From: a virus
Virus record (IMG/VR): IMGVR_UViG_3300032268_000293
Location: 15,832-79,831 of that record
DNA: 64,000 nucleotides
Strand: one strand, 5' to 3'
The notes beneath the pieces were generated by a model. The model made no database searches and was not told where the DNA came from. It saw only the letters and a list, made by a program, of their open reading frames with translations. The translations under genes were made by a program, and so were the position numbers. Below, one piece after another: positions 22,081-40,968 of the stretch. The first letter of the stretch is position 1. Each line of letters opens with the position of its first letter.

Positions 22081-24165
22081 TTATCTAGAATTAGGAAGAT
22101 GTAATGGATAACCTGTCATCTCTACACCACTTCCTTTTTTCTTTGGTGTTGACCCCTTTTGTCTTGCGCCAGATGCAGAACCTTTCGGTCTACCACGCCC
22201 ACGTTTTTCTGTTGATGATTCTTTTTCATCATCAGCATCATATCCCTTTTCATCCTTATCCTTTTCACCCTTATAGTATTCTGTACCATATTTACCAGTT
22301 ACTTTACGAGAAGGAAGATCTGACATTTTAATTTCATCAAGATTAAATCCTTTAAATGAAACCAACTCTACTTCTTCTTTCTTGGTTCCAAGATCTGCTG
22401 ATAATTTTGCAGCGATTGCCATCTGGCGACGCTTTTCCATAGATTTGCCAGCAAATTGTGGAGCATCTGATTTCTTAAAGTCTTTAATAACATCGCCCAT
22501 AGATGCTTTTGTCATATTCATTTTTTCGGCGATCTCGATGAACTGCTCGATTAACGCCAATTCTTCTTGGGTAAATTCCATCTCTATTTCCTCGTTAGTA
22601 GGTTTTGGTAAGTGTGGGGTTACTTTGAACTTATGTAGTTTACCATCACCCAACTCTTTATGAGCCTGGATATGTACATTCTTACCATCGTTCTTAGTTA
22701 CTTTTCCTTGCATCTTGTCACCAGTCTTACTGGCGTAGAAGTCGACATGCTGATCAGATACTTTATGAATATCCATCTTAGCGTGGTCAGGATGCATAAC
22801 ACCTTGTGATGCGTATTCGCGACCATTAATACGAGCTTCTTCTATCTGAACTTCTTCAGACCACTCTCTGCGTTTTCTCATAAACTCAGAACGACCTCTT
22901 CCAACAGTACCACCGATTCTATCTGTTTTCTTTGCTGCAGTTTGAGCATTGTTGAAATGGCGGTCTTCTCCATCCATGTCGCCTTTAGCATTTGCTTTTG
23001 CTGCTTTTTTCATGTGACCCATAACTACATCACCATGAACTTTTCTGACTACCTTTTCAGTTGACTTAGTGTCATTACCATTGACATGTGCATTTGCAAA
23101 TTTGTTGTAGAGAGTTCGAACTGTTAAATCGCCTTCTTCTAGTTCAACTTCTTCTTTCATTTTCTTTTTCGCTAATGCCTGTTTAGCAAGTTCACGTGCA
23201 CGGCTCATTGGCGATTGCGTTGTTCCATCTGAATTTTTAACAGGTTTAGATTTTGTATATGGACCATCAAATGGTACATTATCTTTACGACTTAATGTTG
23301 CTCGTGAATTTGGTGAGAAGTTTGTTGAAGAACCGCCACCGATTTCATCACCTTTACGACGATAAGCAGATGCTGGCTTTTCGTAGTATCCTTCTTCTAC
23401 TTGTTCAGCTTCTTCTTTTTTCATTAGACCCTTAACAGCACCCTTTACCATGTTGATCTGCTTTTGACCAACTTTATGGAAGAAACCTTTTTTACTGTCT
23501 TCTTTGTCTGACTTCAATTTTGCAATTCTGTCATCAGATTGTTTATCGATAGATTTCTTTGCATGATCTGCAGCATCAGAACGCAATTTCTTAATCTGAT
23601 CGTCTGTTAATTCATTAATCTCTTCTTCTTTTACTGGAACGCAGTTAGGAACTTTCTTTCCGTTCTTCATTTTCATACCAACTGCAGTGTAACCTTTCCA
23701 GCAAGCATCCTTTAAATCTCCAGTTGCTTTTTCAACTTCATCGATTTGCTCAACTTCTTCTTTATACGCTAGTTTCGATGCTGCCTTCAAAACACCACTA
23801 AGACGCTTTGCTGACTTCTTAGATGCATCAGCAGACTTACCCATCTCGTGTTTTTGAACAGCTTGATTTGCTGACTTAGCAAACGCCAACTTAGGATCTT
23901 TAGCACGTTTCTCTGCATCTTTTGCTGAAGAAGCACGTCTCTCTGACTCACGTGCTTTATCTGTAGCATCGCCAGCAGCTTTATAAGCATAAGAAGCAAG
24001 AGTCTTTTTATCTAACTCATCTAATTCTTCAACTTCTTCTTTCATTTTCTTCGCACGCAGCTTGGCCAGATCTTCACCTTCGATCTTTCCGTCTTTATCT
24101 ACATCGATTTTTTGCTGTCCGCCTTTTAACGCTTCCAGGTATACTTGTCTAAATGGGTTGCTCAT
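22081..24165 (-). CDS. highly charged internal-head-like protein with AT-hook
   Basis: Repeated KEEVE/L-x-E junctions, CWKGY...VPNCVP module and KRGRGRPKG. Confidence 0.6.
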   Translation of the reverse strand: MSNPFRQVYLEALKGGQQKIDVDKDGKIEGEDLAKLRAKKMKEEVEELDELDKKTLASYAYKAAGDATDKARESERRASSAKDAEKRAKDPKLAFAKSANQAVQKHEMGKSADASKKSAKRLSGVLKAASKLAYKEEVEQIDEVEKATGDLKDACWKGYTAVGMKMKNGKKVPNCVPVKEEEINELTDDQIKKLRSDAADHAKKSIDKQSDDRIAKLKSDKEDSKKGFFHKVGQKQINMVKGAVKGLMKKEEAEQVEEGYYEKPASAYRRKGDEIGGGSSTNFSPNSRATLSRKDNVPFDGPYTKSKPVKNSDGTTQSPMSRARELAKQALAKKKMKEEVELEEGDLTVRTLYNKFANAHVNGNDTKSTEKVVRKVHGDVVMGHMKKAAKANAKGDMDGEDRHFNNAQTAAKKTDRIGGTVGRGRSEFMRKRREWSEEVQIEEARINGREYASQGVMHPDHAKMDIHKVSDQHVDFYASKTGDKMQGKVTKNDGKNVHIQAHKELGDGKLHKFKVTPHLPKPTNEEIEMEFTQEELALIEQFIEIAEKMNMTKASMGDVIKDFKKSDAPQFAGKSMEKRRQMAIAAKLSADLGTKKEEVELVSFKGFNLDEIKMSDLPSRKVTGKYGTEYYKGEKDKDEKGYDADDEKESSTEKRGRGRPKGSASGARQKGSTPKKKGSGVEMTGYPLHLPNSR

Positions 24166-24596
24166 TTAAGGTGACTCCTTATCATCCATCCGTGTTTTTC
24201 GTGAGTATCTATTCTGCCAGCGAGAAAATCAGCCAAACCTTGCTTGTTTTCTCTCGTAGCGATCTCCATTGATTTATTTAGGGATTCTAAAACTCCATCA
24301 TTCGCATTTTGAAGATCTTGGAGCATTTGTTCAACTGTAACCGACACATTTCCCTCATTTAATGTCTTATATTCGTATATTTCGGAAATAGTCCTTGGAG
24401 CATATTCCCTCATAGCACGAATTTCTTCTGCGATATGGTCAATAGAACCATAAACATCTTCATACAACTTACCAAAGAAATCGTGAAACTGGGAAAAGTT
24501 TATTCCTTCTACATTCCAATGGTGTGATTGCGCTTTAAAATACATAACAAATGTATTTCCAAGTAAAACTCTAAGCGACATTACTAATTCATTCAT
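24162..24596 (-). CDS. dps: Dps/ferritin-like DNA protection protein
   Basis: HHWNVEG..F..FHDFF..LY...IDHIAEEIR; HEKHGWM. Confidence 0.92.
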   Translation of the reverse strand: MNELVMSLRVLLGNTFVMYFKAQSHHWNVEGINFSQFHDFFGKLYEDVYGSIDHIAEEIRAMREYAPRTISEIYEYKTLNEGNVSVTVEQMLQDLQNANDGVLESLNKSMEIATRENKQGLADFLAGRIDTHEKHGWMIRSHLK

Positions 24597-24878
24597 TTAA
24601 CAATCCCATGCTTTTCTAGACCAATAATTTGCGCTAGTCTTATCATTAGTATTTCCCTGTCCAGCTGATCTTGCGCAGTAAGATTTTTTGCGAGCAGGAA
24701 TATGTTTTTTAATGGAAAGGTTTTTATCCCCAAAATTTACCTTTTGTGCTTTACCATCTCCGTCTGGGTCAACGTAAACCTTTGACTTTTTTACATCACC
24801 AGACATAGGTTTATTAAGTGTAACGTTCTTTCCCTGATATGTAGCTTCGTTTAACAAGTATTCTTTGAAGGGAATCAT
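24597..24878 (-). CDS. conserved T4-like protein (DUF6321-like) with capsid-targeting-like N-terminus
   Basis: MIPFKEYLLNE; KVNFGD...RKKSYCAR...YWSRKAW. Confidence 0.65.
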   Translation of the reverse strand: MIPFKEYLLNEATYQGKNVTLNKPMSGDVKKSKVYVDPDGDGKAQKVNFGDKNLSIKKHIPARKKSYCARSAGQGNTNDKTSANYWSRKAWDC

Positions 24879-27800
24879 TTCGTGAACCTCTTGTGTTGTA
24901 ATCTTGATTTTTCGATTTGACGAATTCTCGGAGCAACTCTACGTGCTAGTCTATCAACCAACGCTTTTCTAGTTTGCAAGAATCTCTCAACTCTTTCTTT
25001 TTCTGGTAATGTTGCTTTGTTTGGATCTTTACGGAGCATTCTGCGCTTGATCATTGATGTAGCCAAACGACGAGCACGCTTGTTTATTGTAGATTGATTT
25101 GATGTTTTTCTCAATGCGATTTGCGCACGAACCTCACGTTTTGATTTGGTTCTAGCAAAACGCTGTTTACGACGGATGCGTTCCATACGAGAGATCTCGA
25201 GAATGACAATCTTATCTTCTTTGAGTTTTGCTTCTTCTTCATCATCTTCGTAACCATCAGTATCTAATTCTTCACCAGTCTCGTCATCAACGATTGCTAT
25301 CTCATCGTCTTCATATGCGTCAATGATATGCTCTGGTTCTGACATTCCAGTAATTTCGTCTTCAAAATCATCGTCCTCGAAATCTTCTTCTTCACTTTCT
25401 TTCTCTTCTTCTTCAGTCATATGTCTTTTTTGCATTGCAGTAAAAGAAGACTTTTTATTAAGATCATCTAATTGAGAAATATTTTGAATACCAAGGAATC
25501 TCTTTATACTTTCGTAGGACATTTTTCCTGTGTCGCCTACCTTAAATTTATCATCCTCTTCGCAGCCACAATCTTCATCTAATTGAGATTCTTCTTTAAC
25601 TTGTTTCTTTTGCTCTGCTTCTTTTTTCTCACGTGCTTGACGTTCTTGTTTAGCAAGACGTGACATCTTCTTTAGGAAAGATGGTTTGTTGTAGTATGCA
25701 GTAGCCTCGCCAAGTTCTTCTCTTGACTGCAAATAATCTCTAACAGTAGTGATGTAATCTTGCGCTAGTGTAATTTTAGATTGAACCCACTCTGGCATAT
25801 TCTCATCATCTTCGATCATGTCGATCAAATCTTCGCAATTACGTAGAGTAGTTTGTAGTTGCGTGCGAGCCATTTGACCTTCATAGTCATACTCGCCTTT
25901 GTCGATTGTTTTTGCTGCTTCTTCTAGAATATCAAAGTCTTCTTTTAAACCAAACGCTGCGGCAACTTTCTTGTCGCCATGCTTAGTGCGCAGATAGTGA
26001 GAGATAGCGTGGTCTTTAGTTTTGAATTCAGAAGTATCTATAATCTTATGTTGAGTCTTGATTAATCCACGTAGAGACTTAATATCATGATTCTTCTTAA
26101 GAGAGTCGTACTCTGCCTTAATATCTTCATCGATCTCTTCAGCTTCTTCTTTAATGTTTGTTGGCTTGTCTTTATATACTGTACCAAGATGCTTTGCGCC
26201 AGACTTATGTAACGAATTACGTCCATTGGCATTCATGGTGTGGTTGACATCATAACCACCAGATTTATGCTTATACACTTCAATACCATCTAAGTTATCG
26301 CGATGTGTTTTAACTTTGTCAGTAGCATAAGAAACTGCTTGATCTAGTTTTTTGAATGGAGCATTTTCGCTTAGTTCAGTTTCTTCTCGCATCTGCTTGT
26401 ATTTATCGAGGAGATCTTTGTTCTTAGCATAATCTTTTGTTGGCATAGCATAACGAGCAGTCTTAGCATTATCTAAATGATACAGTGATTTTTTTGAGTC
26501 ACCTTTCATATGCGCAGCAACTGCCTTATCCATATGGTACTTAAAAGTGCCTTCTTCTAAGTCATCTTCTTTTGAAGCATTCTTAAAACGCAATTTATGT
26601 GCACGAATCTTTCTACCATGTTTGTCTAACTTAGTGTCAGAAGTCGAAACCTCATCATATCCCTCAGTTACTTTTTGTGGTAGTAATTTCTCGTCGTAGT
26701 TAATACCAGCTTCTCTTGCTGTTTGAAGCATGTTTTTTACAACTGAAAGATATTCAGCACGCATTGGTTTGTTTCTAATTTTTCTTAATGCATTATTAAC
26801 AAGCTGGTCAGCAGAAGAAGACTTCTCGACATCTGTAACACCAAGAGCATCAGCAATAATTCTTGCCACTTTTATTTTATCTGATGAACTAAACTTCATC
26901 TCTATTAGTTCTTTAAAAGTTTTCATAGATTCTTCCATGCCCTCTTCTTTTTCCATGTGATATTGTGCTCGAACTTGGTCAATATCGTGTATTGCGTGAT
27001 TGATATAATCTGCGTGGTGATGTAGAACACCGAGTTTAGCAAGATATTCTTGTGCTTTCTGAGCAGAAATGTTAAATTGCTCAAATTCTTCGTCTGTCAT
27101 CTCATCATTGCCAACTGCTTTATTTAAAATACCGTAATAATCATCAGTTGCTTTCAATGCATTTAAAATAGCAACTGGGTCTAAATCTTCTTGTTTAGTT
27201 AAATGATGAAAAGCATCCAACACTTGTGGATGCTGTAAATTTTTTGGTGTGTAGTTTTTATAAGAGAACTTTGTTGGCTCATCTGCTACTGTGTAATCCT
27301 CAACCAACGTCACATCGTGCAACCACTTACGATGTGTATTACCATCAGAATCAACGACAGTAAGATAATTACTACCTCTATTAAGTATTTCATATTTGTG
27401 ATCATTAGACTCAACGATCTGACCAACTTTAAACACTTCACCTCTATAATAGGACTCTCTCAACCAATCTGTTACTGTAACTTGTTCTTTTACTGCGTCA
27501 AGACCCATTGCTTGTCTCAACTCATTCATCAGTCTGCGACCATCAGCTGTGGTCAATGTGGTTGGAAGACCTTTCTTAAATGTATCAAAATCGCCTTTTT
27601 TAGCAGCATCACGCATTTTGGTACCAGACATTCCAGATGCGTCATCGCTATCTGGATCACGCTCTCCAGCCGAAACTACTTGTATGGTGTTGAAATTGAA
27701 CTCTTTACCGTTGTACTGATTCAACAGTTTTGTATATTCCATAACACGATCGCTTCCTGCGACCATGATAATGTCTTTGTATTTTTTGTTGAGTTCTTTG

Positions 27801-28084
27801 GCGACTTCGATAAATGTTCTTGTGGTTGGACCAGCAGCCATAAAATTGGCTGTTGGGAACATTCTTTTTAGGAAATAGACTTTGCGGTCTACTGGGAGAG
27901 GGTTTTTGGTTTTGTCCTGAGTTCTGGACGCATAGATTACATGAGAAGCATTATGTGTAGATGCAAGACGCTCTACAGCACGAACCAACAGTTCGTGACC
28001 TGTCGTTGGTGGCTGGAAGCGACCAAACGCAAAAACTACTTTTTTGGAAGGGAGTTCCTTCAGAAATTGGGTATATGCTTTCAT
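24875..28084 (-). CDS. HIGH-superfamily (cytidyltransferase-like) nucleotidyltransferase fused to internal-protein-like modules
   Basis: FGRFQPPTTGH, VAGSDR, SAGERDPD and MSGTKMR motifs in about the first 200 aa; long charged remainder; basic C-terminus. Confidence 0.85.
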   Translation of the reverse strand: MKAYTQFLKELPSKKVVFAFGRFQPPTTGHELLVRAVERLASTHNASHVIYASRTQDKTKNPLPVDRKVYFLKRMFPTANFMAAGPTTRTFIEVAKELNKKYKDIIMVAGSDRVMEYTKLLNQYNGKEFNFNTIQVVSAGERDPDSDDASGMSGTKMRDAAKKGDFDTFKKGLPTTLTTADGRRLMNELRQAMGLDAVKEQVTVTDWLRESYYRGEVFKVGQIVESNDHKYEILNRGSNYLTVVDSDGNTHRKWLHDVTLVEDYTVADEPTKFSYKNYTPKNLQHPQVLDAFHHLTKQEDLDPVAILNALKATDDYYGILNKAVGNDEMTDEEFEQFNISAQKAQEYLAKLGVLHHHADYINHAIHDIDQVRAQYHMEKEEGMEESMKTFKELIEMKFSSSDKIKVARIIADALGVTDVEKSSSADQLVNNALRKIRNKPMRAEYLSVVKNMLQTAREAGINYDEKLLPQKVTEGYDEVSTSDTKLDKHGRKIRAHKLRFKNASKEDDLEEGTFKYHMDKAVAAHMKGDSKKSLYHLDNAKTARYAMPTKDYAKNKDLLDKYKQMREETELSENAPFKKLDQAVSYATDKVKTHRDNLDGIEVYKHKSGGYDVNHTMNANGRNSLHKSGAKHLGTVYKDKPTNIKEEAEEIDEDIKAEYDSLKKNHDIKSLRGLIKTQHKIIDTSEFKTKDHAISHYLRTKHGDKKVAAAFGLKEDFDILEEAAKTIDKGEYDYEGQMARTQLQTTLRNCEDLIDMIEDDENMPEWVQSKITLAQDYITTVRDYLQSREELGEATAYYNKPSFLKKMSRLAKQERQAREKKEAEQKKQVKEESQLDEDCGCEEDDKFKVGDTGKMSYESIKRFLGIQNISQLDDLNKKSSFTAMQKRHMTEEEEKESEEEDFEDDDFEDEITGMSEPEHIIDAYEDDEIAIVDDETGEELDTDGYEDDEEEAKLKEDKIVILEISRMERIRRKQRFARTKSKREVRAQIALRKTSNQSTINKRARRLATSMIKRRMLRKDPNKATLPEKERVERFLQTRKALVDRLARRVAPRIRQIEKSRLQHKRFTK

Positions 28085-28113
28085 TTAATCCATCTATATG
28101 AGTAATAATCAAT

Positions 28114-28120
28114 TATTTAG
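28114..28120 (-). promoter_or_regulatory. possible T4-type late promoter variant
   Basis: CTAAATA about 30 nt upstream of the nucleotidyltransferase start. Confidence 0.45.
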
Positions 28121-28192
28121 TCATCTTTTATTCTCATAGTACCTTTACAGGCGATACCGTTAATACTACAGATGCTGTACCTTTTAAATCGC

Positions 28193-28429
28193 TCATACTA
28201 TTGCTAGCAATCCTTGTGCTGCTGCTACAATCCAACGGCAAGCAACTTCGTCGTTAGCCAATTCTTGTTGCGCTCTGATCTCGGCGACTTCTTTAACAAG
28301 AAAATCATATTCTTCTTTAGTTAATTGACCACTTGTATATTGCTCGTAAAATGAGATCAAATCATTAGCAAGAACTCCTGCTGCTCCACCCATTCCTGCT
28401 TGTTGCTGTAGTTGTTCTAATAGATTCAT
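28193..28429 (-). CDS. hypothetical protein
   Basis: Coupled to the upstream lipoprotein by an ATGA overlap. Confidence 0.65.
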   Translation of the reverse strand: MNLLEQLQQQAGMGGAAGVLANDLISFYEQYTSGQLTKEEYDFLVKEVAEIRAQQELANDEVACRWIVAAAQGLLAIV

Positions 28430-28770
28430 CTTCCTCTCCATACATTAGTAATTATTTCTACTCTTGTTTTCTGTAGTTTTAATACACCTTCGCAGAATTT
28501 TTCATTGCTAGATGCTTGGGCTTTTTTCAACGCTTCTTCTAAATCACCCAACGCTTGTGCTTGCGGGTCTTTTCTTAAAGTAGCATAGGTTTTTAATTGC
28601 TCAACTTTCGAAAATGTTGTTTTCCAATCTCTATCAACGCAATTTAGTTTATCGACTGACAATTTTACTTCAACTAATCTATCGAACATAACTGGATCGT
28701 GTGGTTTTGGCATTATGAAAGAGCAACCTGTTAGCACAACTAATGCTATACCTGCTATTAGTTTCTTCAT
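28426..28770 (-). CDS. lipoprotein
   Basis: Lipobox LTGC. Confidence 0.75.
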   Translation of the reverse strand: MKKLIAGIALVVLTGCSFIMPKPHDPVMFDRLVEVKLSVDKLNCVDRDWKTTFSKVEQLKTYATLRKDPQAQALGDLEEALKKAQASSNEKFCEGVLKLQKTRVEIITNVWRGR

Positions 28771-28772
28771 GT

Positions 28773-29984
28773 TTACCTCGGTCTATTTAAAAAGTTATTT
28801 CTAGAAAATTCAAGACGATCAACCAATTTAACAACACGATCTCCCTGAACAGCTACGAATCCTTCTGGTGTTGTAGGAACAAGAGAATTACCTCGCTCAA
28901 CAAAACCAGAAACCCCTGTCTCTAATTTATTTAATTTGTTTACAATTATCATTTTACATGTAACAATCAAAGAAAACGCTTCATACGCTTTCTCAAGAAC
29001 AACTCTGTTCTTATCGAGAAAGTCAATTATCTGCTGTCTCTCATCATTCTTCTTTTGTTTGGTGGCAGCTGTTTTAACTTTATCAATATCTTTTTGCAGT
29101 TCATCATGAACATACTGAGCAAACCCATGCGCCTGAGAGACACCAACGTAACTACCAGCACGAACATTAGCATTATTGTATTTTGCCATCAATGGATACA
29201 GCTGCTTATGTGTTGAGAGATAAGATAAGAATGATGTTGGTATTGCTACTTTAAGTTTCTCTAACTGAGCATGTGCTTTTAGAATAGTGGCTTGCTCTGA
29301 TGCAGAGAGCGATAGATCCTTTGTTTTGTCTTTAAGGATAGCGTCATCAACAAACACATTCTTTGATTTCTTTAATCCAGCAATAGAATAACCGAAATTG
29401 GCTTTCATTGTAGCAGGATCAGAGCCAGTGTAGTAAGTATGAAAAATAATACCCATTTTACTTGCGATGATTCTTCTACCAAGATCACTATCAGCAACGA
29501 CAGCATATACAATAGTATTGGGTTTGAAAGTAACATGTTTTACTCCATCAATTGTTTGTGGCTTTAGATCGCCTTCAGTATAAAGAAAATCGCCCTGAAC
29601 AGTTCCATTAATACCAAGATCTCTGCAGTATTTTAAAGCATACTTCATTTTCTCAACAAGACCTGGAGAATGTCCATGGTTTGCGATAATATCTGCTTCT
29701 GTTCTGTTAAGTTTCGGATTCGCATTGAATGCTGACTTTGAAGCGACCCAATAATCTGTTCCTGAATCGTGAACAATAATTGAAGGAGAACCATCCCACT
29801 TCGTAGTAATTAATGTTCCTGATGGTTTATTATACAAAGCATTGACATAAATCTGAATACTCTCTATGGCAAAATCTAAACCTGCCTTACCTTCCTCGAA
29901 CATCAAATCTTCTAGATGCGAGAGATGTTTTAAACGAGTAGTATCGTTTACTGCTTCTGCTATGTAACCTTTTAAATTATACAT
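28773..29984 (-). CDS. DUF6267-like protein with ATP-dependent ligase/capping-type motifs
   Basis: TKWDGSP (motif I), QGDFL, PEGFVA (IV), VKLVDRLEFS (V). Confidence 0.65.
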   Translation of the reverse strand: MYNLKGYIAEAVNDTTRLKHLSHLEDLMFEEGKAGLDFAIESIQIYVNALYNKPSGTLITTKWDGSPSIIVHDSGTDYWVASKSAFNANPKLNRTEADIIANHGHSPGLVEKMKYALKYCRDLGINGTVQGDFLYTEGDLKPQTIDGVKHVTFKPNTIVYAVVADSDLGRRIIASKMGIIFHTYYTGSDPATMKANFGYSIAGLKKSKNVFVDDAILKDKTKDLSLSASEQATILKAHAQLEKLKVAIPTSFLSYLSTHKQLYPLMAKYNNANVRAGSYVGVSQAHGFAQYVHDELQKDIDKVKTAATKQKKNDERQQIIDFLDKNRVVLEKAYEAFSLIVTCKMIIVNKLNKLETGVSGFVERGNSLVPTTPEGFVAVQGDRVVKLVDRLEFSRNNFLNRPR

Positions 29985-29992
29985 TTCTTGCC

Positions 29993-31294
29993 TTATTTGA
30001 TTACGATGTATAGAGAACTATCAGTGCTCAACTTCTTAGAACTAAAATAACAGAATGTCATATTCTCCTGAAATTTGGTTTTCGGTGAAATCATGAAACT
30101 ATAAAGATATGAGATCAAGTTCGCGAATCTATCTTTAGTTAATTTATCTGCCTTACTGAACAATGCTTCTGCTTGCTTGTAGTCTTTAATCGTATTTGAT
30201 AAACGTGGGAATTTGGTAAACATCTCTTTTAATTCTGTTTTGGCTTTGGTATAATCGCTTGCTGATACACCAACACCACTACGAACAGTATAACCATACT
30301 TCTGCTTTTGATGTGGTCCATACTGTTTAGCATCAACAGCACCAAGTTGATAACCTGCACCAATAAATCTACCTTCTAGAGATACATTTAATGTTGTGGC
30401 AGATGCTTTAAAACCACAACGAACAGCAAAACCAGATTTCGTTTGGACAATAAAATTAGCAAAAGTATCTGACAAATCTACTTTAGAAAATGTCATGTCA
30501 TAATCTAATTTCTGATTCATTTGAGATGCTGGGTCAGTTATCTCGAGAACAGCTTTATCTTCAGTAACTTGCTTTAAAGAAATAGGAATAAGATCTTTCT
30601 TCTTGAATGCTGCAGCAATACCATTATTCAGTTCTTCAATAGAAGTTGCATTTACAAGTTTCTTAATGTCGTATGTTTTCTTAATCATCCAAACGTCAGC
30701 TGGATTCCAGTTGTCATTTGCTTTACCAGATAATTTTCTGCCAGTCTTATACAAGTTATCAGTTAGATTTGACGCTTGTCTTTCATAATGATACCCTTTG
30801 TTACTGCCCATAAACTTCTTTATAACAACTGTTTGTTTTGCAGCGGATTCATAATAAATTGATTGGTATAAGTTTTTCTTGCTACCAATTTTCTGCATAA
30901 TCTGTTCTTCAGTTAAGGTTTTGTTCGATTCAATTGCTGCCTCAAACATATACATGCTAATCAATTCTTTTAACTCAGTAAGAGCACCTGTGTTGCTCTT
31001 GGAATTTTCGCTGAAATGATTAAAACAATTATTGATTGAACTTTCAGAACCTTTTATAAGAACAACTTTTTTATTGGCATCAATTAGAGTTATAGTATCT
31101 TTACCAGATGCTAATTCAATTACAAGACTTATGTCTTTTGTCTTTGCTGTTTTTGTGATGGTGAACACCGATTCACCAAGTTTATACTTGTTATCAGTAA
31201 ACTTCTTTCCTGTTGATGGTGGAATCTTATCTGATTCCTTTAGAACTATTTTATGTCCCTCACCATACTTTGAACTACCAACAATTGATGCCAT
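29993..31294 (-). CDS. hypothetical protein, possible PD-(D/E)xK-like nuclease fold
   Basis: WNPADVW...IPISLKQ. Confidence 0.5.
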   Translation of the reverse strand: MASIVGSSKYGEGHKIVLKESDKIPPSTGKKFTDNKYKLGESVFTITKTAKTKDISLVIELASGKDTITLIDANKKVVLIKGSESSINNCFNHFSENSKSNTGALTELKELISMYMFEAAIESNKTLTEEQIMQKIGSKKNLYQSIYYESAAKQTVVIKKFMGSNKGYHYERQASNLTDNLYKTGRKLSGKANDNWNPADVWMIKKTYDIKKLVNATSIEELNNGIAAAFKKKDLIPISLKQVTEDKAVLEITDPASQMNQKLDYDMTFSKVDLSDTFANFIVQTKSGFAVRCGFKASATTLNVSLEGRFIGAGYQLGAVDAKQYGPHQKQKYGYTVRSGVGVSASDYTKAKTELKEMFTKFPRLSNTIKDYKQAEALFSKADKLTKDRFANLISYLYSFMISPKTKFQENMTFCYFSSKKLSTDSSLYIVIK

Positions 31295-31306: not shown

Positions 31307-32026
31307 TTAACTCTGTTTTTTTCTTTGCTTACAAAGAACTCTCTCATATTTATTGTTCCATTTAATGACTTGTTTAAACAACTTGGGTATTGCTTGGTTG
31401 TTGTGAGCATCGTAATTAAATGTTCTGAGATAGTATCGTAGAGTTTTTGAATCTCGACTTTTTCTGGCTCTAGAAAGTAATTGAGTTATTGGAACATTTG
31501 GTCGATTTCTTTTAAAGTCCAAGTATATACAATGGGCATATGCTTGTATTTCATCAAACTCCGAAAGATATTTTCTTTCTTCGTTCTTTTTAAGCTGTTT
31601 TACTTTTTTGTAGGGAAGAACATAATTTGACCACTCATCACATCTTCTATCAAACTGCATAAAATGCACAAGTTCATGCATAGCAATTTGAATGAGTCTG
31701 AATTTAAATTTATTCCACGTTGTTTCTGTAAACGGGAATTTGTCAAAGTAATCTGTATAAATGTGTATAGCACACTGTCGTTCTTGTGGGTCATATTCAC
31801 CACCCATTGCGACGTTTGTTAAATAGAATTTCGACTTCAGTTTCTCTGGGCGATACTCAACTTTAGTGCGCCATTTTTTGAAGTAGTTTGATAGACCCTT
31901 AGAATCGTTGCGATACAGGTCTAAATCGTTCCAAATTTTTGATGGAATGAATTTTGCTCTGAACGGACGTTCAGAGAAAGGTAGAAAATCTATGAAATCG
32001 ATATTTACTTGTTTGAGATGTTCCAT
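31307..32026 (-). CDS. putative HExxH zinc metalloprotein
   Basis: AMHELVHFMQ with downstream DEIQAYA. Confidence 0.6.
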   Translation of the reverse strand: MEHLKQVNIDFIDFLPFSERPFRAKFIPSKIWNDLDLYRNDSKGLSNYFKKWRTKVEYRPEKLKSKFYLTNVAMGGEYDPQERQCAIHIYTDYFDKFPFTETTWNKFKFRLIQIAMHELVHFMQFDRRCDEWSNYVLPYKKVKQLKKNEERKYLSEFDEIQAYAHCIYLDFKRNRPNVPITQLLSRARKSRDSKTLRYYLRTFNYDAHNNQAIPKLFKQVIKWNNKYERVLCKQRKKQS

Positions 32027-32060
32027 AGCAACCCCATAAGGTCAGGAATATTTATCCTTT

Positions 32061-32089
32061 ATTATACCTTATGGGTTGTTCGGTGTCAA
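32061..32089 (-). promoter_or_regulatory. sigma70-type early promoter
   Basis: TTGACA-N17-TATAAT. Confidence 0.8.
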
Positions 32090-34490: not shown

Positions 34491-35800
34491 ACAAAGAATT
34501 CATCAATATCAGCCTTTACCGCATTGGGATGATACTTCGCCAAATCTTCTTCACCAAGTTTGTTGCGAAGGTAATCATACCACTCTTGTTCTTCCCACAT
34601 TCCTGGGGAAACACCATTCCATAGTTTTTTCCATAGAGGGTGTTCTTTGTTCAATCTACGAGACTCAACATATTCATATCTAGTATTTTCGTATTCGTAC
34701 GATCCAAGTTCTAACATGTTTTCACGCAAATAAACAACAAGCGAAACACGCTCAGAACCTTCTTCGCATACGATTGGTGTGTTACCATGAATAACCTCAT
34801 GATTGTTTACCAACAACAAATCTCCTGGACGAACATTTACGGCAATACGAATTTCAGGGAAAATCAAATAACCACCTGTGTATCTACCATCATTAGAAAG
34901 TGTCAACAGATTTGAAAGACCATCAGAAAAGTCGCCAGCATCACGATGAGCAGCAGTTCTAAATGTTTTATTTACTGTTACTGTAGTAAAAGGTGTCTCA
35001 GGAATAACAAATCTTGGATCAATTTTATCTGTTGCTACTTTCTGAGCGGAATATCTTGTTGGTAATAGTGTCTCAAAACCTCTAGCCAAATGCTGAAGGA
35101 AGGGATACGCCATCTTAAACTTCTCAAAATTATCACGAGTATATGTAGTCGCACGACCAAACGGAATACGAGGATAACGATCGAACCAACCTGCGATACC
35201 AGAATCAACTGGATTACCATAGGATGTTTCACTAACCATCTTCATAGTTTCTTGTGTTGATTCTGCTCTCTGCGCAGGTGTCAACGGAATAATACTGTCA
35301 ACCCACTCATCAAAATTAAATTTGTTGCGGAAACGTGAGATAACCCAAACATTATTCTTACCCGAACCCAATGCTTTCAAACGTGACTCTGGTGTTGGAT
35401 AACGTGAACGAATTTCTTCAATAACATCCTCATCTCCGAGTTTGGCTTTTTCTGCGTTGAGTAAAGCAAGCATTAGTTCTTCCTGATAATTTGTTACCCA
35501 CTCACGACCTTCGCCTGTTACCGATGTCCCTTCTTTGATACCAGAAGCAAGTCCACGATTTTCAGTACGAACAGCAGCCTCACGCAATCCAGCATATGCT
35601 GCGTCTTGTTCTTCCTTTGAGAAAAAGTTTTTTCTAAACTTAAAGGCAATATGCCTTTCGTCTGGATCAACTCCATAACCAGATGGAAGATAACAATCCG
35701 TATCCTCTTCAATCAAAATATCATAATTGGACTCATCAACAAACATACCAAGTAAATGTTCGCAGTCATGTTTTTGTTCTAGTTTAATTACACGTGTCAT
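34487..35800 (-). CDS. TET/JBP-family 2OG-Fe(II) 5-methylpyrimidine dioxygenase
   Basis: TPFTTVTVN..FRTAAHRDAGD (HxD), HEVIHGNTP (distal H), RVSLVVYLRE (2OG-binding R). Confidence 0.85.
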   Translation of the reverse strand: MTRVIKLEQKHDCEHLLGMFVDESNYDILIEEDTDCYLPSGYGVDPDERHIAFKFRKNFFSKEEQDAAYAGLREAAVRTENRGLASGIKEGTSVTGEGREWVTNYQEELMLALLNAEKAKLGDEDVIEEIRSRYPTPESRLKALGSGKNNVWVISRFRNKFNFDEWVDSIIPLTPAQRAESTQETMKMVSETSYGNPVDSGIAGWFDRYPRIPFGRATTYTRDNFEKFKMAYPFLQHLARGFETLLPTRYSAQKVATDKIDPRFVIPETPFTTVTVNKTFRTAAHRDAGDFSDGLSNLLTLSNDGRYTGGYLIFPEIRIAVNVRPGDLLLVNNHEVIHGNTPIVCEEGSERVSLVVYLRENMLELGSYEYENTRYEYVESRRLNKEHPLWKKLWNGVSPGMWEEQEWYDYLRNKLGEEDLAKYHPNAVKADIDEFFV

Positions 35801-37191
35801 ACTTTAAACCCTTCGAAATTGTTTTCTTCTATTCTTTTACCAAAAGAACTTTGATCAAATAGAGGAACATCATTATCAACTTTACCCATACCACCCAAAT
35901 TACTTTGAGCACTCATCTCAACATCATATAGACGCATATGTTTACGATCAACTCCAACAATAAATCTCTTATAGAAATTTGGATCAGAATAACGATTCTT
36001 CAACTGTTTCACCATAATCTGATTCAACTCCGCAAGTTCCTCTGTACTAATTAGAGCAATCATTAAGTCTGCTGTTGCTGGCAAACCGAAAGATTCAGAA
36101 GTATCTTCAAGACCAACATCAGTGTTACTATAACCAGAACGTGTAGTTTGTGTAGCAGAAACAATTGGCACTTTATACTCAACAGCCAAACCACGAAGTT
36201 CTTCTGCGATTGCTTTAATATATGTATAAGAGTTTACATTTCCACTCAGTTTCAAACGCTGACTTGCACAAATATTAATATAATCGATAAAGATAATGTC
36301 TGGCGTAAAGTCTTTCTTCAATCTCAACTCTTCAAGCAAAGCACGGAAATGACCAGCATGAGCAGAAGTGGTAGGATATTCTTTTACGACCAATTTACCA
36401 TTCGTCTTTTCTTTCAACTTCTCAACACGAGAATCAAAGACCCTACGCTCAACCATCTTCAATCCTTCCATAGAAAGATCAAGTAGGTTTGCGTCAATAC
36501 GTTCTGCAATCTTTTCCTCAGCCATCTCCATGGTTATGTATAAAACATTAACACCCTTCATCAACATAGACGAAGCAAAATGACACATTGCCAAAGATTT
36601 ACCAACACCAGTACCAGCAAGAATAATGTTCAGCGTTTTCTTACTGACTCCTCCGTTCGTGATTTTATTGAGAAGTTCAATGTCGAAAGGAATCTTCTCT
36701 TCAACCCTGTGATAAAAATCATAACGATCAGCAGCATTTTCAAGATAGTCATGACCAACATGATTATCAAATGAAACGGCAAGAGCATCGCTAAGAATAG
36801 AAACAATCGCATCTTGGTTACGGTTTTTATCTTTTCCATCAATTATTTTGATTGAACTGAGAATAGCATTATAAACTGCTTTATCTTTACAGAATTTTTC
36901 TGTTGATTCAACCAACCACTCCTCATTAGAATGTTCATCCGCAAAATCTTCAACAAGTTCGTTAATGTTTTTTACTTGTTCGTCAGTAACATCAGTTCTA
37001 TTACTTACTTCAATTTTAACAATATCTTTACTTGGAACCTTACCATACTTGTTAAAGAATTTATCAATTTCCTCAAAAACAATACGATCTGTTCTCTCAG
37101 TAAAATACTCAGGAACCAGAAAGGGCATAACCTTTCTGGAATATTCCTCATTAGAAATTAGATTTGAAAAAATCTGATTTTCAATTCTCAT
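35797..37191 (-). CDS. 41: replicative helicase gp41
   Basis: [21 protein letters not shown] and KQLKNRY motifs. Confidence 0.97.
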
Positions 37192-38239
37192 TCAATTCTT
37201 CCTCTAGTTCTTCAATTTCTTGCTCAACGTCACTACCATAATTATACTTTGATTTACAATATTTGTCAAGTTGAGTTAAGATATCCTCAGTGAAGAAATT
37301 AGAGGGATTGCTTGCAATGTTTTTACCGAATACTTTTCTACCATCATGAACCTCGATACGACCACCCTGCGCTTTCCAGATTCCTGCTTCAACAGCAAGA
37401 TCGGTTAGACCATGATGACGATCTAGACCTTTAGTGAAAGACAATTTTGTTTCAACCATAGATTTCTCTCTTGTGAAACGAGACTTCTCAAGTTTACACT
37501 TGATAATATTACCAACAACTTCAGTTCCGTCTTTATCTTGCGACTTAGAAAGGAACACGATTGTTGATGCTGCATATTTCAAGCCATCGCCACCACCCAT
37601 AACTTTAGTTGGAATGTAAGCACCAACTGCTGCGTAAGTATGATTAGTCACAACCATAGCAATATCGAGTTTAGCCAACTTCAAAGATAGCACCCTGAAA
37701 GCACCTCGAATCAACTGCGCACGAGTCATATCTCGTGTATCTTTCCCCTCAAGCGTATCTTCCATTTCTTTAGCAGTTGAAAGCATACCCAATGAATCAA
37801 GGAACAACATCAAAGGTGGGCGATCTTTCTTTGGTGTCTTTTCATAAGCATCTAGAATCTTAGATGCTTGAGTGCGGAATTCTTGAATCGTAGAAACAGG
37901 AACAATAACAAAACGCTTGGTGTCAATACCACGTTCCTGAAGCATGTCCTTCGTCAACGCACCTTCTGTTTCAAAGTAAACGACTCCAGCTTGTTCATTA
38001 GTTCGAAGAAAATTTCCCGCAATGCCAAGAGCATAAAAGGTTTTTCCTGTGGAAGACTCACCAGCCAAAGCTGTAACTTTGTTGCTAGGTAAACCACCAT
38101 AGATGCTACCACTGATAAGAGCATTAAAGGCATAAGAACCAGTATCGATAAAACTGCCAGTATCACCAACCACACCATCATCAGCCAATCCCGCATATTC
38201 ATTATCAAGTTCCTTTACAATATTTTTTAAAAAACTCAT
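37181..38239 (-). CDS. uvsX: RecA-like recombinase UvsX
   Basis: [18 protein letters not shown] and GGGDG motifs. Confidence 0.96.
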
Positions 38240-38487: not shown

Positions 38488-40968
38488 TCATGCGAAGAAT
38501 TCATCTAGATCGTTTTTCTCAACAATACTCCAGTCAATTGCCTCAAGAATTATTGAAAGTGGATCAAGAAACACCTTCTCAAACTGTTTATCATAATCTA
38601 TGTATTTATGTAGATTCAGCTCATTTGGTAAAGTACCAACAAACGAAATAATGTTTTCGTGTATTGTGTTTGGTTCACGCAAGTAAACGAATTTAATTTT
38701 ATCACCATTCTTAATCAATTGATATTTGTTTAAGAGATTCATTTCTTTCATGTAGTGATTATATAACAAAGCACCACGGACATGAATTGGCGTAGCCTTT
38801 TTATAGATTGTTGATGAAGATTTATAATCATTCAAGTCATTTACGCCACGTGGGAAAGCAATCTCTTCCACACTCATCGTATTAAATTTCTTTTGAAAGT
38901 CAAGAACGAACTTCCTTAGTTCTTTCTCATCACCACCCATAATCACTTTAATGGCATCTTTTAAAGTCTCACGAATAGTAGCAGGTGTTGACGACTTAAC
39001 CACCTCAAGACCCATAATCTTCATCTTGGGTTGCGCATACTGAACACCCTCAGAGTTATGGACATTGAGAACGTAGCGTTTCTTAGCAGTCCATATACCT
39101 TTGTCGGCGATAGACTCACGCTTCATAATCATTTTTTGATCATAAGCATTCTGTCTTCGAGCAAGTTCTTGATAACATTTATCGATGAATGGTTGAACCT
39201 TGTCTTCGCATATCTTGTCGATTGTAACTATTACTTTTTGGGTGTCTTTTTGTTGTTCTTCTGTGAAGATAGAATCAACAAGCGGAGCCATATTAATATA
39301 CACAGAGTCAGTATCAACAGCAATAACATAGTCTGCTCCTTCAGTCTTTAACAATTTGTTGAAATATTCATTGAGTCTATCGTGGATCCAACGAATAGAA
39401 AGTTGACCAGAAAGTGTAATACCTTCTGATAATCGTTTATCGTAGTATCGGAAATATTGATTAGCCAAAGCACCATAAGCAGAGTTAAGAGCAATCTTTA
39501 ATGCCATCTGTAGGTTGTTGAGTCTAGATATCTCATTAGTCAATGCATGATTCTTTGTGTTCTCATATTCCTGCTGCACTTTCAGCATCTGCTTCTTTGA
39601 CTTGCTTCGATCAGTATACATTTTCTCCATCAACTCAGGGAGGAAACCACGTACGTCTTTACGATAACACCATCCATTCGCAGAAACAGCAAGTCCATTA
39701 TTATCTGGCTCTTCTTTCAGAAACAAATCTACTCCACCAGAAACGCTTTTAACAATAGTCTCGGGAGACATATTATACTGCATAATCAAATGCGGATACA
39801 GACTATTCAAGTCAAACGAAACTACCCACTTATGAAATCCAATCAGAGGATCTTTAACATACGCACCTTCAATTGCTGTGTCTTTAGAGTTACCAGTCTT
39901 TGGTGGTATAACAATCTTTTTTGCACGCAAATGATTGTAGATTATAGTATCCCACATGCGAACCTGCGAAAACACATCTTCGTAGTTCACCTTTGCGTTA
40001 TAAGCCATAACAATCGCCAACTCGACAAGTTTCATCTTGTCTTCAAGCATGTCAACAAGAGAGGTGTCATGAATATTATAGTCAACGAAATCACGCCAGT
40101 GGTTTGTATAGAAATCTTTGAAAGAATCTCCTGGGTTTTCTTTCTTACGCTCACCAAGTTCCACAAAAGCAATATGGTCAAGACGATACGATTCCTGCAT
40201 CGTATAAGTAAACTTCTTATAGAGATCGATGTAGTCAAGAACACTTACGCCAATAATATCATACGCAATTTCTTTATTGCCTTTGATGTAGATTTCTCTG
40301 CGTGTGATCATATTCCAAGGCGACATCTTCTTAGAGTCATCTTCGCCGAGAACGTTGTGAATACGTTGAATCAGATATGGGATATCGAACAGATTGATGT
40401 TCCAACCTGTAACAATATCTGGTGTGTTCTTACGCCAAAATGTTAAGAACTCGCGAAGCAGTTTTGCTTCCGAGTCACAGTGAATGTAGAAAGGACATTG
40501 ACCATCGTAAGGTTTGCGACCAAACACAGTTAGACGTTTGGTCTTGTTGTCCATCAACGAGATTAGAAGTATTTCCTCATTCGCCGTTTCGATGTTAGGA
40601 AAACCATCCTCAGTCTCAGTTTCAATATCAATAGAGAAACACCTAATCTTGTCCTTGTCGTAAACAATTTCTGACGGATAATTATCCGAGATGTATTGGT
40701 AAGCATAATTTAAATTTCCATAAATTTTAAAACCCTCAACACCCTCGTACTTCTCGATAAAGTCTCGTGTGTCTTTAATATTACCTGGAGAGAATGAATA
40801 CACAACTTCGCCATCAAGTGTGCGCATCATCTCTTTTGAATTTTTATGTTTTGATGTTACGTAGAGAGTTGGGTGGAAATCTATCTTCTCTTTAAATGTC
40901 TCACCATTCTCATAACCTCGAACGAGAATTTTATTCCCGATAGAACAAATGTTCGTATAAAACTGCAT
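38488..40968 (-). CDS. 43: family B DNA polymerase gp43
   Basis: DIET exonuclease motif, FDLNSLYP, KIALNSAYG, DTDS, KKRY. Confidence 0.98.
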   Translation of the reverse strand: MQFYTNICSIGNKILVRGYENGETFKEKIDFHPTLYVTSKHKNSKEMMRTLDGEVVYSFSPGNIKDTRDFIEKYEGVEGFKIYGNLNYAYQYISDNYPSEIVYDKDKIRCFSIDIETETEDGFPNIETANEEILLISLMDNKTKRLTVFGRKPYDGQCPFYIHCDSEAKLLREFLTFWRKNTPDIVTGWNINLFDIPYLIQRIHNVLGEDDSKKMSPWNMITRREIYIKGNKEIAYDIIGVSVLDYIDLYKKFTYTMQESYRLDHIAFVELGERKKENPGDSFKDFYTNHWRDFVDYNIHDTSLVDMLEDKMKLVELAIVMAYNAKVNYEDVFSQVRMWDTIIYNHLRAKKIVIPPKTGNSKDTAIEGAYVKDPLIGFHKWVVSFDLNSLYPHLIMQYNMSPETIVKSVSGGVDLFLKEEPDNNGLAVSANGWCYRKDVRGFLPELMEKMYTDRSKSKKQMLKVQQEYENTKNHALTNEISRLNNLQMALKIALNSAYGALANQYFRYYDKRLSEGITLSGQLSIRWIHDRLNEYFNKLLKTEGADYVIAVDTDSVYINMAPLVDSIFTEEQQKDTQKVIVTIDKICEDKVQPFIDKCYQELARRQNAYDQKMIMKRESIADKGIWTAKKRYVLNVHNSEGVQYAQPKMKIMGLEVVKSSTPATIRETLKDAIKVIMGGDEKELRKFVLDFQKKFNTMSVEEIAFPRGVNDLNDYKSSSTIYKKATPIHVRGALLYNHYMKEMNLLNKYQLIKNGDKIKFVYLREPNTIHENIISFVGTLPNELNLHKYIDYDKQFEKVFLDPLSIILEAIDWSIVEKNDLDEFFA

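Follow-up and report, generated by a model that had tools for sequence, protein, structure and literature searches.

The locus described here raises the question of whether a 403-residue protein of the Pfam family DUF6267, encoded close to a nucleotidyltransferase (NTase) of the HIGH superfamily, is a distant relative of the ligases, and whether the two proteins act together. Both genes lie in a 64,000-nucleotide stretch (the window) of the IMG/VR phage fragment IMGVR_UViG_3300032268_000293, which is 79.8 kb long, estimated to be 49% complete, and does not contain the head module. An earlier note, made from the sequence alone, had proposed a two-enzyme pathway delivered at injection. The reading that we favor, with moderate confidence, is that Kyanoviridae-type phages carry a module coupling a ligase-like protein to an adenylyltransferase, in which the DUF6267 protein is a divergent enzyme that forms a lysine–nucleoside monophosphate (lysine-NMP) intermediate and its partner is of the NMNAT/PPAT type; the module probably acts on nucleic-acid ends. 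The observations behind this reading are family membership, residue conservation, fold resemblance, synteny, gene fusions and a pattern of N-terminal tags. Every gene of the region is carried by the minus strand, and the principal parts are as follows.

28773–29984, minus strand: DUF6267 protein, 403 amino acids, candidate ligase-like covalent nucleotidyltransferase
29952–29984, minus strand: N-terminal peptide MYNLKGYIAEA of the DUF6267 protein, resembling a capsid-targeting sequence (CTS), disordered in the predicted model
29790–29804, minus strand: motif I of the DUF6267 protein, TKWDG (residues 61–65), with K62 the predicted nucleotidyl-accepting lysine
28815–28868, minus strand: motifs IV–V of the DUF6267 protein, PEGFVA (residues 373–378) and VVKLVDR (residues 384–390)
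24875–28084, minus strand: multi-module open reading frame (ORF) of 1069 amino acids with the NTase at its N-terminus
27485–28084, minus strand: HIGH-motif adenylyltransferase-like domain, residues 1–200 of the 1069-residue ORF

The 403-residue ORF is a full-length member of DUF6267 (E = 6.5e-86), a family that comprises over 5,500 clusters when grouped at 90% identity and has 2,022 representatives at 50%. The family is essentially viral; GenBank phages that carry it include cyanophages, the OM43 phage Melnitz, pelagiphages and phages of Vibrio, Pseudoalteromonas and Stenotrophomonas. Its 68 matches in genome entries come nearly all from aquatic metagenome-assembled genome (MAG) contigs assigned to many unrelated phyla; they are read as mis-binned phage contigs, and probably being such, they provide no cellular context. 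The literature searched contains no mention of DUF6267. The earlier note's term "uncharacterised" applies to function but not to the genes themselves, both of which have figured for twenty years among the conserved T4-like cyanophage gene clusters (T4-GC 71 and 190 in S-PM2).

Residue conservation was counted over 110 family representatives clustered at 50% identity, which are ~30–40% identical to the window's protein. K62, D64 and G65 of motif I are each kept in 109 of them, the sole exception being an N-terminally aberrant sequence. D132 of the QGD motif (residues 130–132) is kept in 109, F153 of an FxPNT motif in 108 and R390 in 109, and K83, Y160, H182, E374, G375 and K386 are each found in all 110. 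Motifs I, III, IIIa, IV and V are colinear. The ordered series TKWDG, QGD, EGFV and VK to which the earlier note had drawn attention is present and falls among the most conserved positions of the family, the KxDG lysine included. Toward the N-terminus, the family also keeps an H20-x-x-H23-x-E25-D26 motif almost without exception, and lysines 298, 304, 309, 344 and 350, located in a helical insert, are conserved.

The AlphaFold model of the DUF6267 protein has a pLDDT of 82, with residues 1–19 disordered (pLDDT 41–49 for residues 1–20). Its β-rich core, formed by residues ~60–215 and 359–389, is split by a helical insert of ~130 residues (helices 228–351) located before motif IV. Only a short helix follows the last strand. 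No OB-fold domain is present after motif V, in line with the earlier note, which had seen no obvious one: the protein stops 13 residues past VKLVDR, which leaves no room for one. The structural comparison that the same note proposed yielded ligases as the sole non-helical matches of the model, the best being the RNA ligases REL1, Rnl2, NgrRnl and the Trl1 ligase domain and DNA ligases lying within one Z unit of these, but Foldseek against the PDB returned nothing at E ≤ 0.001, with ligases among the noise at E ~0.5. Residue 62 of the model pairs with chain residue 34 of T4 Rnl2, 169 of NgrRnl and 26 of the Chlorella virus ligase. We take the catalytic lysines of these enzymes to be K35, K170 and K27, respectively, and K62 of the predicted structure is thus aligned on or next to the ligase catalytic lysine.

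A PDB sequence search with the DUF6267 protein and its profile identified no ligase, the best matches being noise (Ddl and a cysteine desulfurase, E ~0.4–1.2). The window's protein does not match Pfam RNA_lig_T4_1 (PF09511) even at E ≤ 10, and a family search of the genome fragment for an Rnl1-type Pfam match was negative; three of the 110 representatives touch RNA_lig_T4_1, with a best E of 6e-4. With an Rnl1 profile built from homologues of phage K64-1 RnlA, the IEGFV..G..fKI segment (motifs IV–V) aligns with PEGFVA..G..VKL in dozens of DUF6267 members and, in a few of these, KlDGS also aligns with KxDG(A/S)P in the same order, no match being significant alone. Alignment of DUF6267 by hhalign with one Rnl1 sequence or with an Rnl1 alignment covered only motifs IV–V, at probabilities of 1.9–4.5% (4.5% over 32 columns), and the one lead from the ESM Atlas, a viral cluster in which 48% of members carry RNA_ligase, is weak (score 0.75). 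Every defining sequence feature is nonetheless present and invariant, and the fold evidence, modest in strength, points solely toward ligases. On this combined evidence we regard the DUF6267 protein as a probable covalent nucleotidyltransferase, very divergent and of the OB-less RNA-ligase type, and assign it to no named ligase family.

The OB-less RNA ligases used for comparison were T4 Rnl2 (PDB accession numbers 2hvr and 1s68), Naegleria NgrRnl/Rnl5 (5cot), T. brucei REL1 (1xdn), T4 Rnl1 and the fungal Trl1 ligase domain (6n0t). The DUF6267 protein shares with them the order of motifs I (KxDG), III, IIIa, IV (EGxV) and V, the lack of an OB domain and, in the predicted model, the placement of the catalytic lysine. 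It shares with Rnl1 the motif IV–V segment described above and, with the T4 enzyme, an invariant lysine ~20 residues past motif I (K83, presumably comparable to K119 of T4 Rnl1). In contrast, it exhibits no significant sequence or profile similarity to these ligases, its core is split before motif IV by the ~130-residue helical insert, and it ends right after motif V, lacking the C-terminal domain of Rnl1 and Rnl2 as well as the N-domain of Rnl5. It also lacks the second lysine of motif V and has an invariant N-terminal HLxHLED motif of its own, a CTS-like leader and an association with a HIGH NTase.

The NTase ORF starts at position 28084, 688 bp downstream of the DUF6267 stop, in agreement with the ~700 bp given in the earlier note, and two small ORFs occupy the gap. 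Only the first ~200 residues of the 1069-residue ORF form the NTase. The sequence FGRFQPPTTGH is at residues 20–30 (27995–28027) and MSGTKMR at residues 152–158 (GMSGTKMR, 27611–27634). A (T/H)xGH motif, a second motif of the SxTxxR type and a Rossmann-like fold place it in the HIGH superfamily, as the note had it, and the family keeps FGRFxPP(T/H)xGH, VAGSDR, SAGERDPD and SG(M)SxTKMR. Structural comparison gave scores of 12.7 for the NMNAT of M. jannaschii (153 of 164 residues), 12.7 for Francisella NadM, 12.4 for a Vibrio NadD-like protein, 11.8 for PPAT, 10.3 for NadR and 8–9.6 for cytidylyltransferases of the TagD and CCT types. The closest structural class is that of the adenylyltransferases of nicotinamide mononucleotide (NMN) and nicotinic acid mononucleotide (NaMN), namely NadM, NadD and NMNAT.

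The databases name the enzyme differently. It matches phrog_3041 and phrog_395, both labeled "cytidyltransferase" (E = 1e-66 and 3e-57), and barely passes Pfam CTP_transf_like (PF01467; 21.3 bits vs a cut-off of 21); no NCBIfam curated equivalog model matches at E ≤ 0.01, and the misspelt label "cytitidyltransferase" has no match in the literature searched. Because the NMNAT, NadM, NadD and PPAT structures score above the cytidylyltransferases, the database label "cytidylyltransferase" is probably inaccurate in detail, and the modeled fold indicates that the NTase is probably an adenylyltransferase-like HIGH enzyme of the NMNAT/PPAT type. When compared with NadM-type NMNAT (M. jannaschii, 1f9a; Francisella NadM-Nudix, 2qjt), NadD and PPAT (CoaD), it resembles them in the GRFxP..(T/H)xGH and SxTxxR-type motifs, and some loci carry a canonical GRFQPFHKGH in the same position. 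It differs from them in its low identity (13–19%), its own invariant VAGSDR and SAGERDPD sequences, the lack of a Nudix domain, the small β-domain and long charged modules that follow it, and the CTS-like leader. Taken as a pair, the two proteins work most like an OB-less RNA ligase and an NMNAT/PPAT, and are members of neither at the family level.

In a minority of relatives the HIGH NTase is fused to a P-loop kinase. The Walker A sequence GGPGSGKS is found in L059 (3185–5254), L080 (6870–9062), L137 (7185–8465) and L150 (7651–8895), and Pfam Zeta_toxin/AAA_33 matches L031 (10008–12551), P0367 and P0375. By analogy, such NTase–kinase fusions are reminiscent of Pnk-type end healing or of NadR.

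The association of the two genes was surveyed in 80 IMG/VR loci chosen by DUF6267 alone and in independent MAG contigs, a locus being said to have room when at least 2.5 kb of downstream sequence was available. A same-strand NTase is found downstream of DUF6267 in 41 of the 50 IMG/VR loci with room and in 30 of 37 MAG contigs, 71 of 87 together (82%), at a distance of mostly 0–800 nt. At least one further locus, L031, which is not among the 41, has a canonical GRFQPFHKGH enzyme in the NTase position. No other neighbor approaches this frequency: gp41 occurs in 32 of the 80 loci, a count limited by flank length, and ORF433 in 12. PHROG 455 (764 positions) spans both proteins, the DUF6267 protein over positions 17–336 and the 1069-residue protein over 421–690. 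By hidden Markov model, 14 of 41 long DUF6267 representatives carry an NTase domain, and both orders occur, DUF6267–NTase in P0122, P0142, P0183 and P0220 and NTase–DUF6267 in P0133 and P0164. Some 7–9 more long representatives have divergent HIGH motifs (GGFKPPHxGH...SGTxMR or GRFQP...) outside DUF6267, mostly N-terminal, and three HIGH-motif subtypes are included among the fusions. P0122, the representative second in closeness (58% identity across its DUF6267 part), has the two domains fused directly, and the corrected S-PM2 protein is a 591-residue fusion. Same-strand adjacency, fusions in both orders and the span of PHROG 455 strongly support one functional module of T4-like marine myophages (Kyanoviridae and kin), if not an absolute coupling. 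The co-occurrence that the earlier note anticipated is confirmed and a functional two-enzyme unit is supported, whereas none of the specific pathways that it listed (tRNA repair, anti-defense or cofactor regeneration) is established.

In P-SSM2, a "tRNA ligase" encoded three genes past the cytidyltransferase (PSSM2_198, L004:7777–8580) was rejected as a partner; it is a 267-residue class II aminoacyl-tRNA-synthetase-like protein (PF00152, E = 7e-13) and not an RNA-joining enzyme. In Klebsiella phage K64-1 (L005/L086/L088, 281.3–298 kb), a stand-alone short NTase homologue adjoins a DNA methyltransferase; an RNA ligase of the Rnl1 family is encoded ~6 kb away and a DNA ligase of the gp30 type ~16 kb away, and DUF6267 is not found there.

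In T4, the first ten residues constitute the capsid-targeting sequence, and gp21 cuts after L/I-x-E (PMC9026906). T4 IPII and IPIII start with MKTYQEFIAEA; in the window, the DUF6267 protein starts with MYNLKGYIAEA, the NTase with MKAYTQFLKEL, ORF93 with MIPFKEYLLNEA and ORF694 with MSNPFRQVYLEAL. The CTS pattern fits only three of the 224 window ORFs of at least 60 residues, all of them in this cluster, and the capsid-targeting-like N-termini reported in the earlier note are real as a pattern. The N-terminal consensus of DUF6267 is M-x-x-F-K-Q-[YF]-[LI]-x-E-[AS], with [LIVM]xE within the first 13 residues in 55 of 61 members, and the NTase family keeps MKxYxxL[IV]xxLP. As in T4 IPI–III and Alt, positions 4 and 7 are aromatic, position 8 is aliphatic, position 10 is Glu and position 11 is small; the decapeptide ends in the gp21 cleavage motif, and the cargo proteins vary, with nothing but the tag in common. 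Unlike in the T4 proteins, there is no sequence relation beyond the tag, and proteomic support is available for the NTase alone, from relatives. All four complete module-carrying relatives encode a gp21-type prohead protease; none was found in the 79.8-kb fragment, incomplete and without a head module as it is.

The NTase, listed as a cytidylyltransferase, was detected in the S-CREM2 virion proteome with three peptides (PMC10665884) and in that of S-SZBM1 with two, along with the product of the next gene (PMC9146016), the authors warning of carry-over. Packaging of the NTase is plausible, and by analogy with T4 it is probable that the NTase, at least, enters the head and is injected together with the DNA. 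Delivery at injection, as proposed in the earlier note, is partly supported, by the CTS-like decapeptide of both families and by two cyanophage proteomes for the NTase, but not for its partner. In loci without the NTase, the proteins that follow DUF6267 also have CTS-like starts, for example MKTFIQFLEEA and MTATFLQYIAEG; such replacements are found at L022:4526–5278, L131:7224–8066, L155:3213–3821 and L104:7206–9061. Their N-terminal sequences suggest that the position after DUF6267 may be a slot for varied head cargo.

From these observations we infer catalysis, ligation, a substrate, a cofactor link and injection in the following scheme. K62 would attack the α-phosphate of an adenylate donor to give lysyl-adenylate (lysyl-AMP), the AMP would be passed to a 5′-phosphate end, and the end would then be sealed, with the lysine/arginine-rich helical insert perhaps replacing the OB domain in holding the nucleic acid. 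The partner would act in the same pathway, most likely by making or regenerating the adenylate donor, e.g. converting NMN and ATP to nicotinamide adenine dinucleotide (NAD+), or, less likely, by adenylylating the same substrate. NMN is the leaving group of NAD+-dependent ligation. A partner that makes the donor would explain the frequent fusion and would suit phages that have neither gp30 nor a LigA-type ligase. That the NMNAT-like partner supplies NAD+ for ligation is speculative and, at best, an unlikely proposal. Its fullest version, which we regard as doubtful, is that DUF6267 would be the missing strand-joining enzyme of Kyanoviridae-type phages and would take AMP from NAD+ or another dinucleotide made by its partner, as a self-recharging unit (NMN + ATP to NAD+ to lysyl-AMP) that is loaded into the capsid and injected. 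If this were true, nucleic acid could be sealed or repaired even in hosts whose NAD+ has been drained by defense systems.

Neither a PF01068 nor a PF01653 ligase was found in Melnitz, S-PM2 or P-SSM2, and gp30 has been described as a non-cyanophage core gene (PMC5349666, PMC2993671). T4 gp30 and host LigA belong to the lysine-AMP superfamily, and DUF6267 stands among replication genes in phages without gp30. In contrast to these ligases, it has no OB, DNA-binding, BRCT or zinc domain. A role as a simple gp30 substitute was considered and is weakened by phage DLP6, which has both gp30 and DUF6267, and by P-SSM2, in which DUF6267 is far from the NTase; given DLP6, DUF6267 is not simply a ligase substitute.

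Several observations weigh against the coupled ligase-like module. Motif V is without its second lysine (VKLVDR), R390 being located four residues on. About 18% of the loci with room have no NTase, the two genes of P-SSM2 are ~100 kb apart, and jumbo phages such as K64-1 have short NTase homologues without DUF6267. The coexistence of gp30 and DUF6267 in DLP6 belongs here as well, as does the DUF6267 homologue SSZBM1_141, which does not appear in the S-SZBM1 virion list. Finally, NMN, phosphopantetheine and other acceptors of the NTase are not separated by the present evidence.

The main rival explanation, possible if less probable than the module as we describe it, is an RNA-repair system in which DUF6267 would mend tRNAs or other RNAs after cleavage by host anticodon nucleases while the NTase, with the kinase fused to it in some relatives, would prepare the ends or restore nucleotides, by a logic like that of T4 Pnk and Rnl1 or fungal Trl1. 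The identity of the best structural matches (REL1, Rnl2, NgrRnl and the Trl1 ligase domain), the direction of the weak profile matches, toward Rnl1, and the relatives with NTase–P-loop kinase fusions (GGPGSGKS Walker A; Zeta_toxin/AAA_33) all agree with it, and in phages, RNA ligases are known to be accompanied by nucleotidyltransferases and kinases (PMC7824862). However, the nucleotidyltransferases so far associated with RNA ligases are of the Pol-β type, not HIGH (PMC7824862), the window's proteins include no kinase or phosphoesterase, and kinase fusions are a small minority. The scores of the DNA ligases, within one Z unit of those of the RNA ligases, and the position of the module in the DNA replication block also speak against it. 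Nucleotidylation without sealing, by which DUF6267 would move the NMP from its lysine to a protein, to a nucleic-acid end in a cap-like manner or to a small molecule, with the HIGH enzyme supplying an unusual donor, is improbable. The covalent superfamily does hold capping enzymes, the OB domain and the second motif V lysine are missing, the invariant H20-x-x-H23-x-E25-D26 has no counterpart in known ligases, and T4 packages the NAD-using modifier Alt by the same route (PMC9026906); yet capping enzymes require an OB domain and are not found among the structural matches, which are ligases throughout.

Less credible still is the view that the genes are unrelated neighbors, the NTase a stand-alone gene for NAD+ or coenzyme A supply and DUF6267 a non-catalytic head- or scaffold-associated protein whose ligase-like motifs are a relic or a coincidence. 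It would account for structural and profile similarities to ligases that are below conventional significance and for the lone NTase of jumbo phages, and the literature treats the NTase as an auxiliary metabolic gene (PMC9146016, PMC10665884). It is disfavored by repeated independent fusions in both orders, by the 82% same-strand adjacency and by near-absolute conservation of the ligase-catalytic residues at ~30–40% identity, since relics would not keep exactly those residues. The least credible explanation, highly improbable in our judgment, is that the database label is right and the NTase is a glycerol-3-phosphate or other cytidylyltransferase making cytidine diphosphate (CDP)-alcohols for cell-envelope modification, as has been suggested (PMC9146016, PMC12379486). 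Annotation in many records and the marginal CTP_transf_like match favor it, but the NTase is coupled to a ligase-like protein rather than to envelope genes, and its second motif is SGTxMR. The latter is the motif of NMNAT and PPAT, the cytidylyltransferase counterpart being RTxGISTT.

The coupled module, if active, would add to the ligase superfamily a new branch whose core is split and which has no OB domain. The most abundant marine viruses include the T4-like cyanophages and their SAR11- and OM43-infecting relatives, which are described as ligase-less; an active module could explain how they join Okazaki fragments or repair RNA, and it would perhaps also represent a new type of cargo for injection. 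Ligases that are compact and lack an OB domain are also attractive as practical reagents. In the literature searched, we found neither the ligase-type reading nor the split-core architecture, nor any account of systematic pairing and fusion with a HIGH enzyme or of the shared head-loading tag.

The module is part of the replication block, downstream of gp43, UvsX and gp41. The gene order is that of T4-like cyanophages; gp41 is likewise followed by these two genes in S-PM2, Melnitz, DLP6 and S-SZBM1. In the order of transcription, the remaining genes of the region are the following.

38488–40968, minus strand: gp43 DNA polymerase, first of those listed
37181–38239, minus strand: UvsX, after gp43
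35797–37191, minus strand: gp41 helicase, after UvsX
Between gp41 and ORF239, minus strand: a 437-residue protein, a 276-residue protein and a glycosyltransferase
31307–32026, minus strand: ORF239, 239 amino acids, first gene of a putative operon
29993–31294, minus strand: ORF433, 433 amino acids, possible restriction-endonuclease-like nuclease, directly upstream of the DUF6267 gene
28426–28770, minus strand: lipoprotein-like ORF of 114 amino acids with lipobox LTGC, between the DUF6267 and NTase genes
28193–28441, minus strand: ORF of 82 amino acids, between the DUF6267 and NTase genes, overlapping the 114-residue ORF
24597–24878, minus strand: ORF93, 93 amino acids, with the CTS-like start MIPFKEYLLNEA
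24162–24596, minus strand: Dps/ferritin-like gene, amid long charged proteins
After the Dps/ferritin-like gene, minus strand: ORF694, charged protein of 694 amino acids, last in this order

The 114-residue ORF is not part of the conserved module. Its homologues occur in two of the 80 related loci and that of the 82-residue ORF in one, and the 58%-identical relative P0122 is fused directly without either; for the two small ORFs this suggests a recent moron insertion. Neither the TET/JBP nor the glycosyltransferase genes close by were accepted as module members, since they have homologues in only one of the 80 loci. In 16 of 148 loci an ORF433 homologue is located immediately 5′ of DUF6267; conserved in these homologues are W196-x-P-x-D200, S239-L-K241 and E309, a PD...SxK arrangement that we take to resemble Cfr10I/NgoMIV-type enzymes. 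Pfam and PDB sequence searches with ORF433 gave no match, and RE_HaeIII and RE_HpaII are sub-threshold ESM Atlas leads (score 0.85–0.86).

Promoter-like patterns are located ahead of three of the genes.

32049–32089, minus strand: TTGACA-17-TATAAT, followed 4 nt on by GATAAATA, ahead of ORF239; 12 of 12 consensus positions, a pattern match only
31347–31354, minus strand: AATAAATA, before ORF433
28114–28120, minus strand: CTAAATA, before the NTase gene

The T4 late promoter TATAAATA is absent near these genes, where only the looser NATAAATA and CTAAATA matches occur; NATAAATA has nine matches on the minus (coding) strand vs one on the plus strand. At the level of pattern only, and not as evidence of function, these signals would fit both early and late transcription, as a packaged protein would need.

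ORF239 contains a HExxH motif (AMHELVHF), is without a significant family match and has homologues in only three of the 80 loci. Beyond the NTase, the 1069-residue protein comprises a small β-domain (~205–262), also seen in stand-alone 265-residue homologues, helical modules, a very acidic stretch (~880–950) and a very basic tail (~955–1069). The modules of this ORF, ORF93 and ORF694 are joined differently among relatives; in Melnitz, a single 650-residue protein combines the NTase, an ORF694 segment, DUF5824 and, as its C-terminal segment, an ORF93 homologue. Residues 153–193 of ORF694 (CWKGY...NC motif) match residues 339–379 of the Melnitz protein and ORF93 matches residues 554–630, the shuffled stretch corresponding to window positions 22081–24878 (minus strand) and to L001:7634–9586. 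The basic tail of the 1069-residue ORF matches residues 245–350 of DLP6 gp68.

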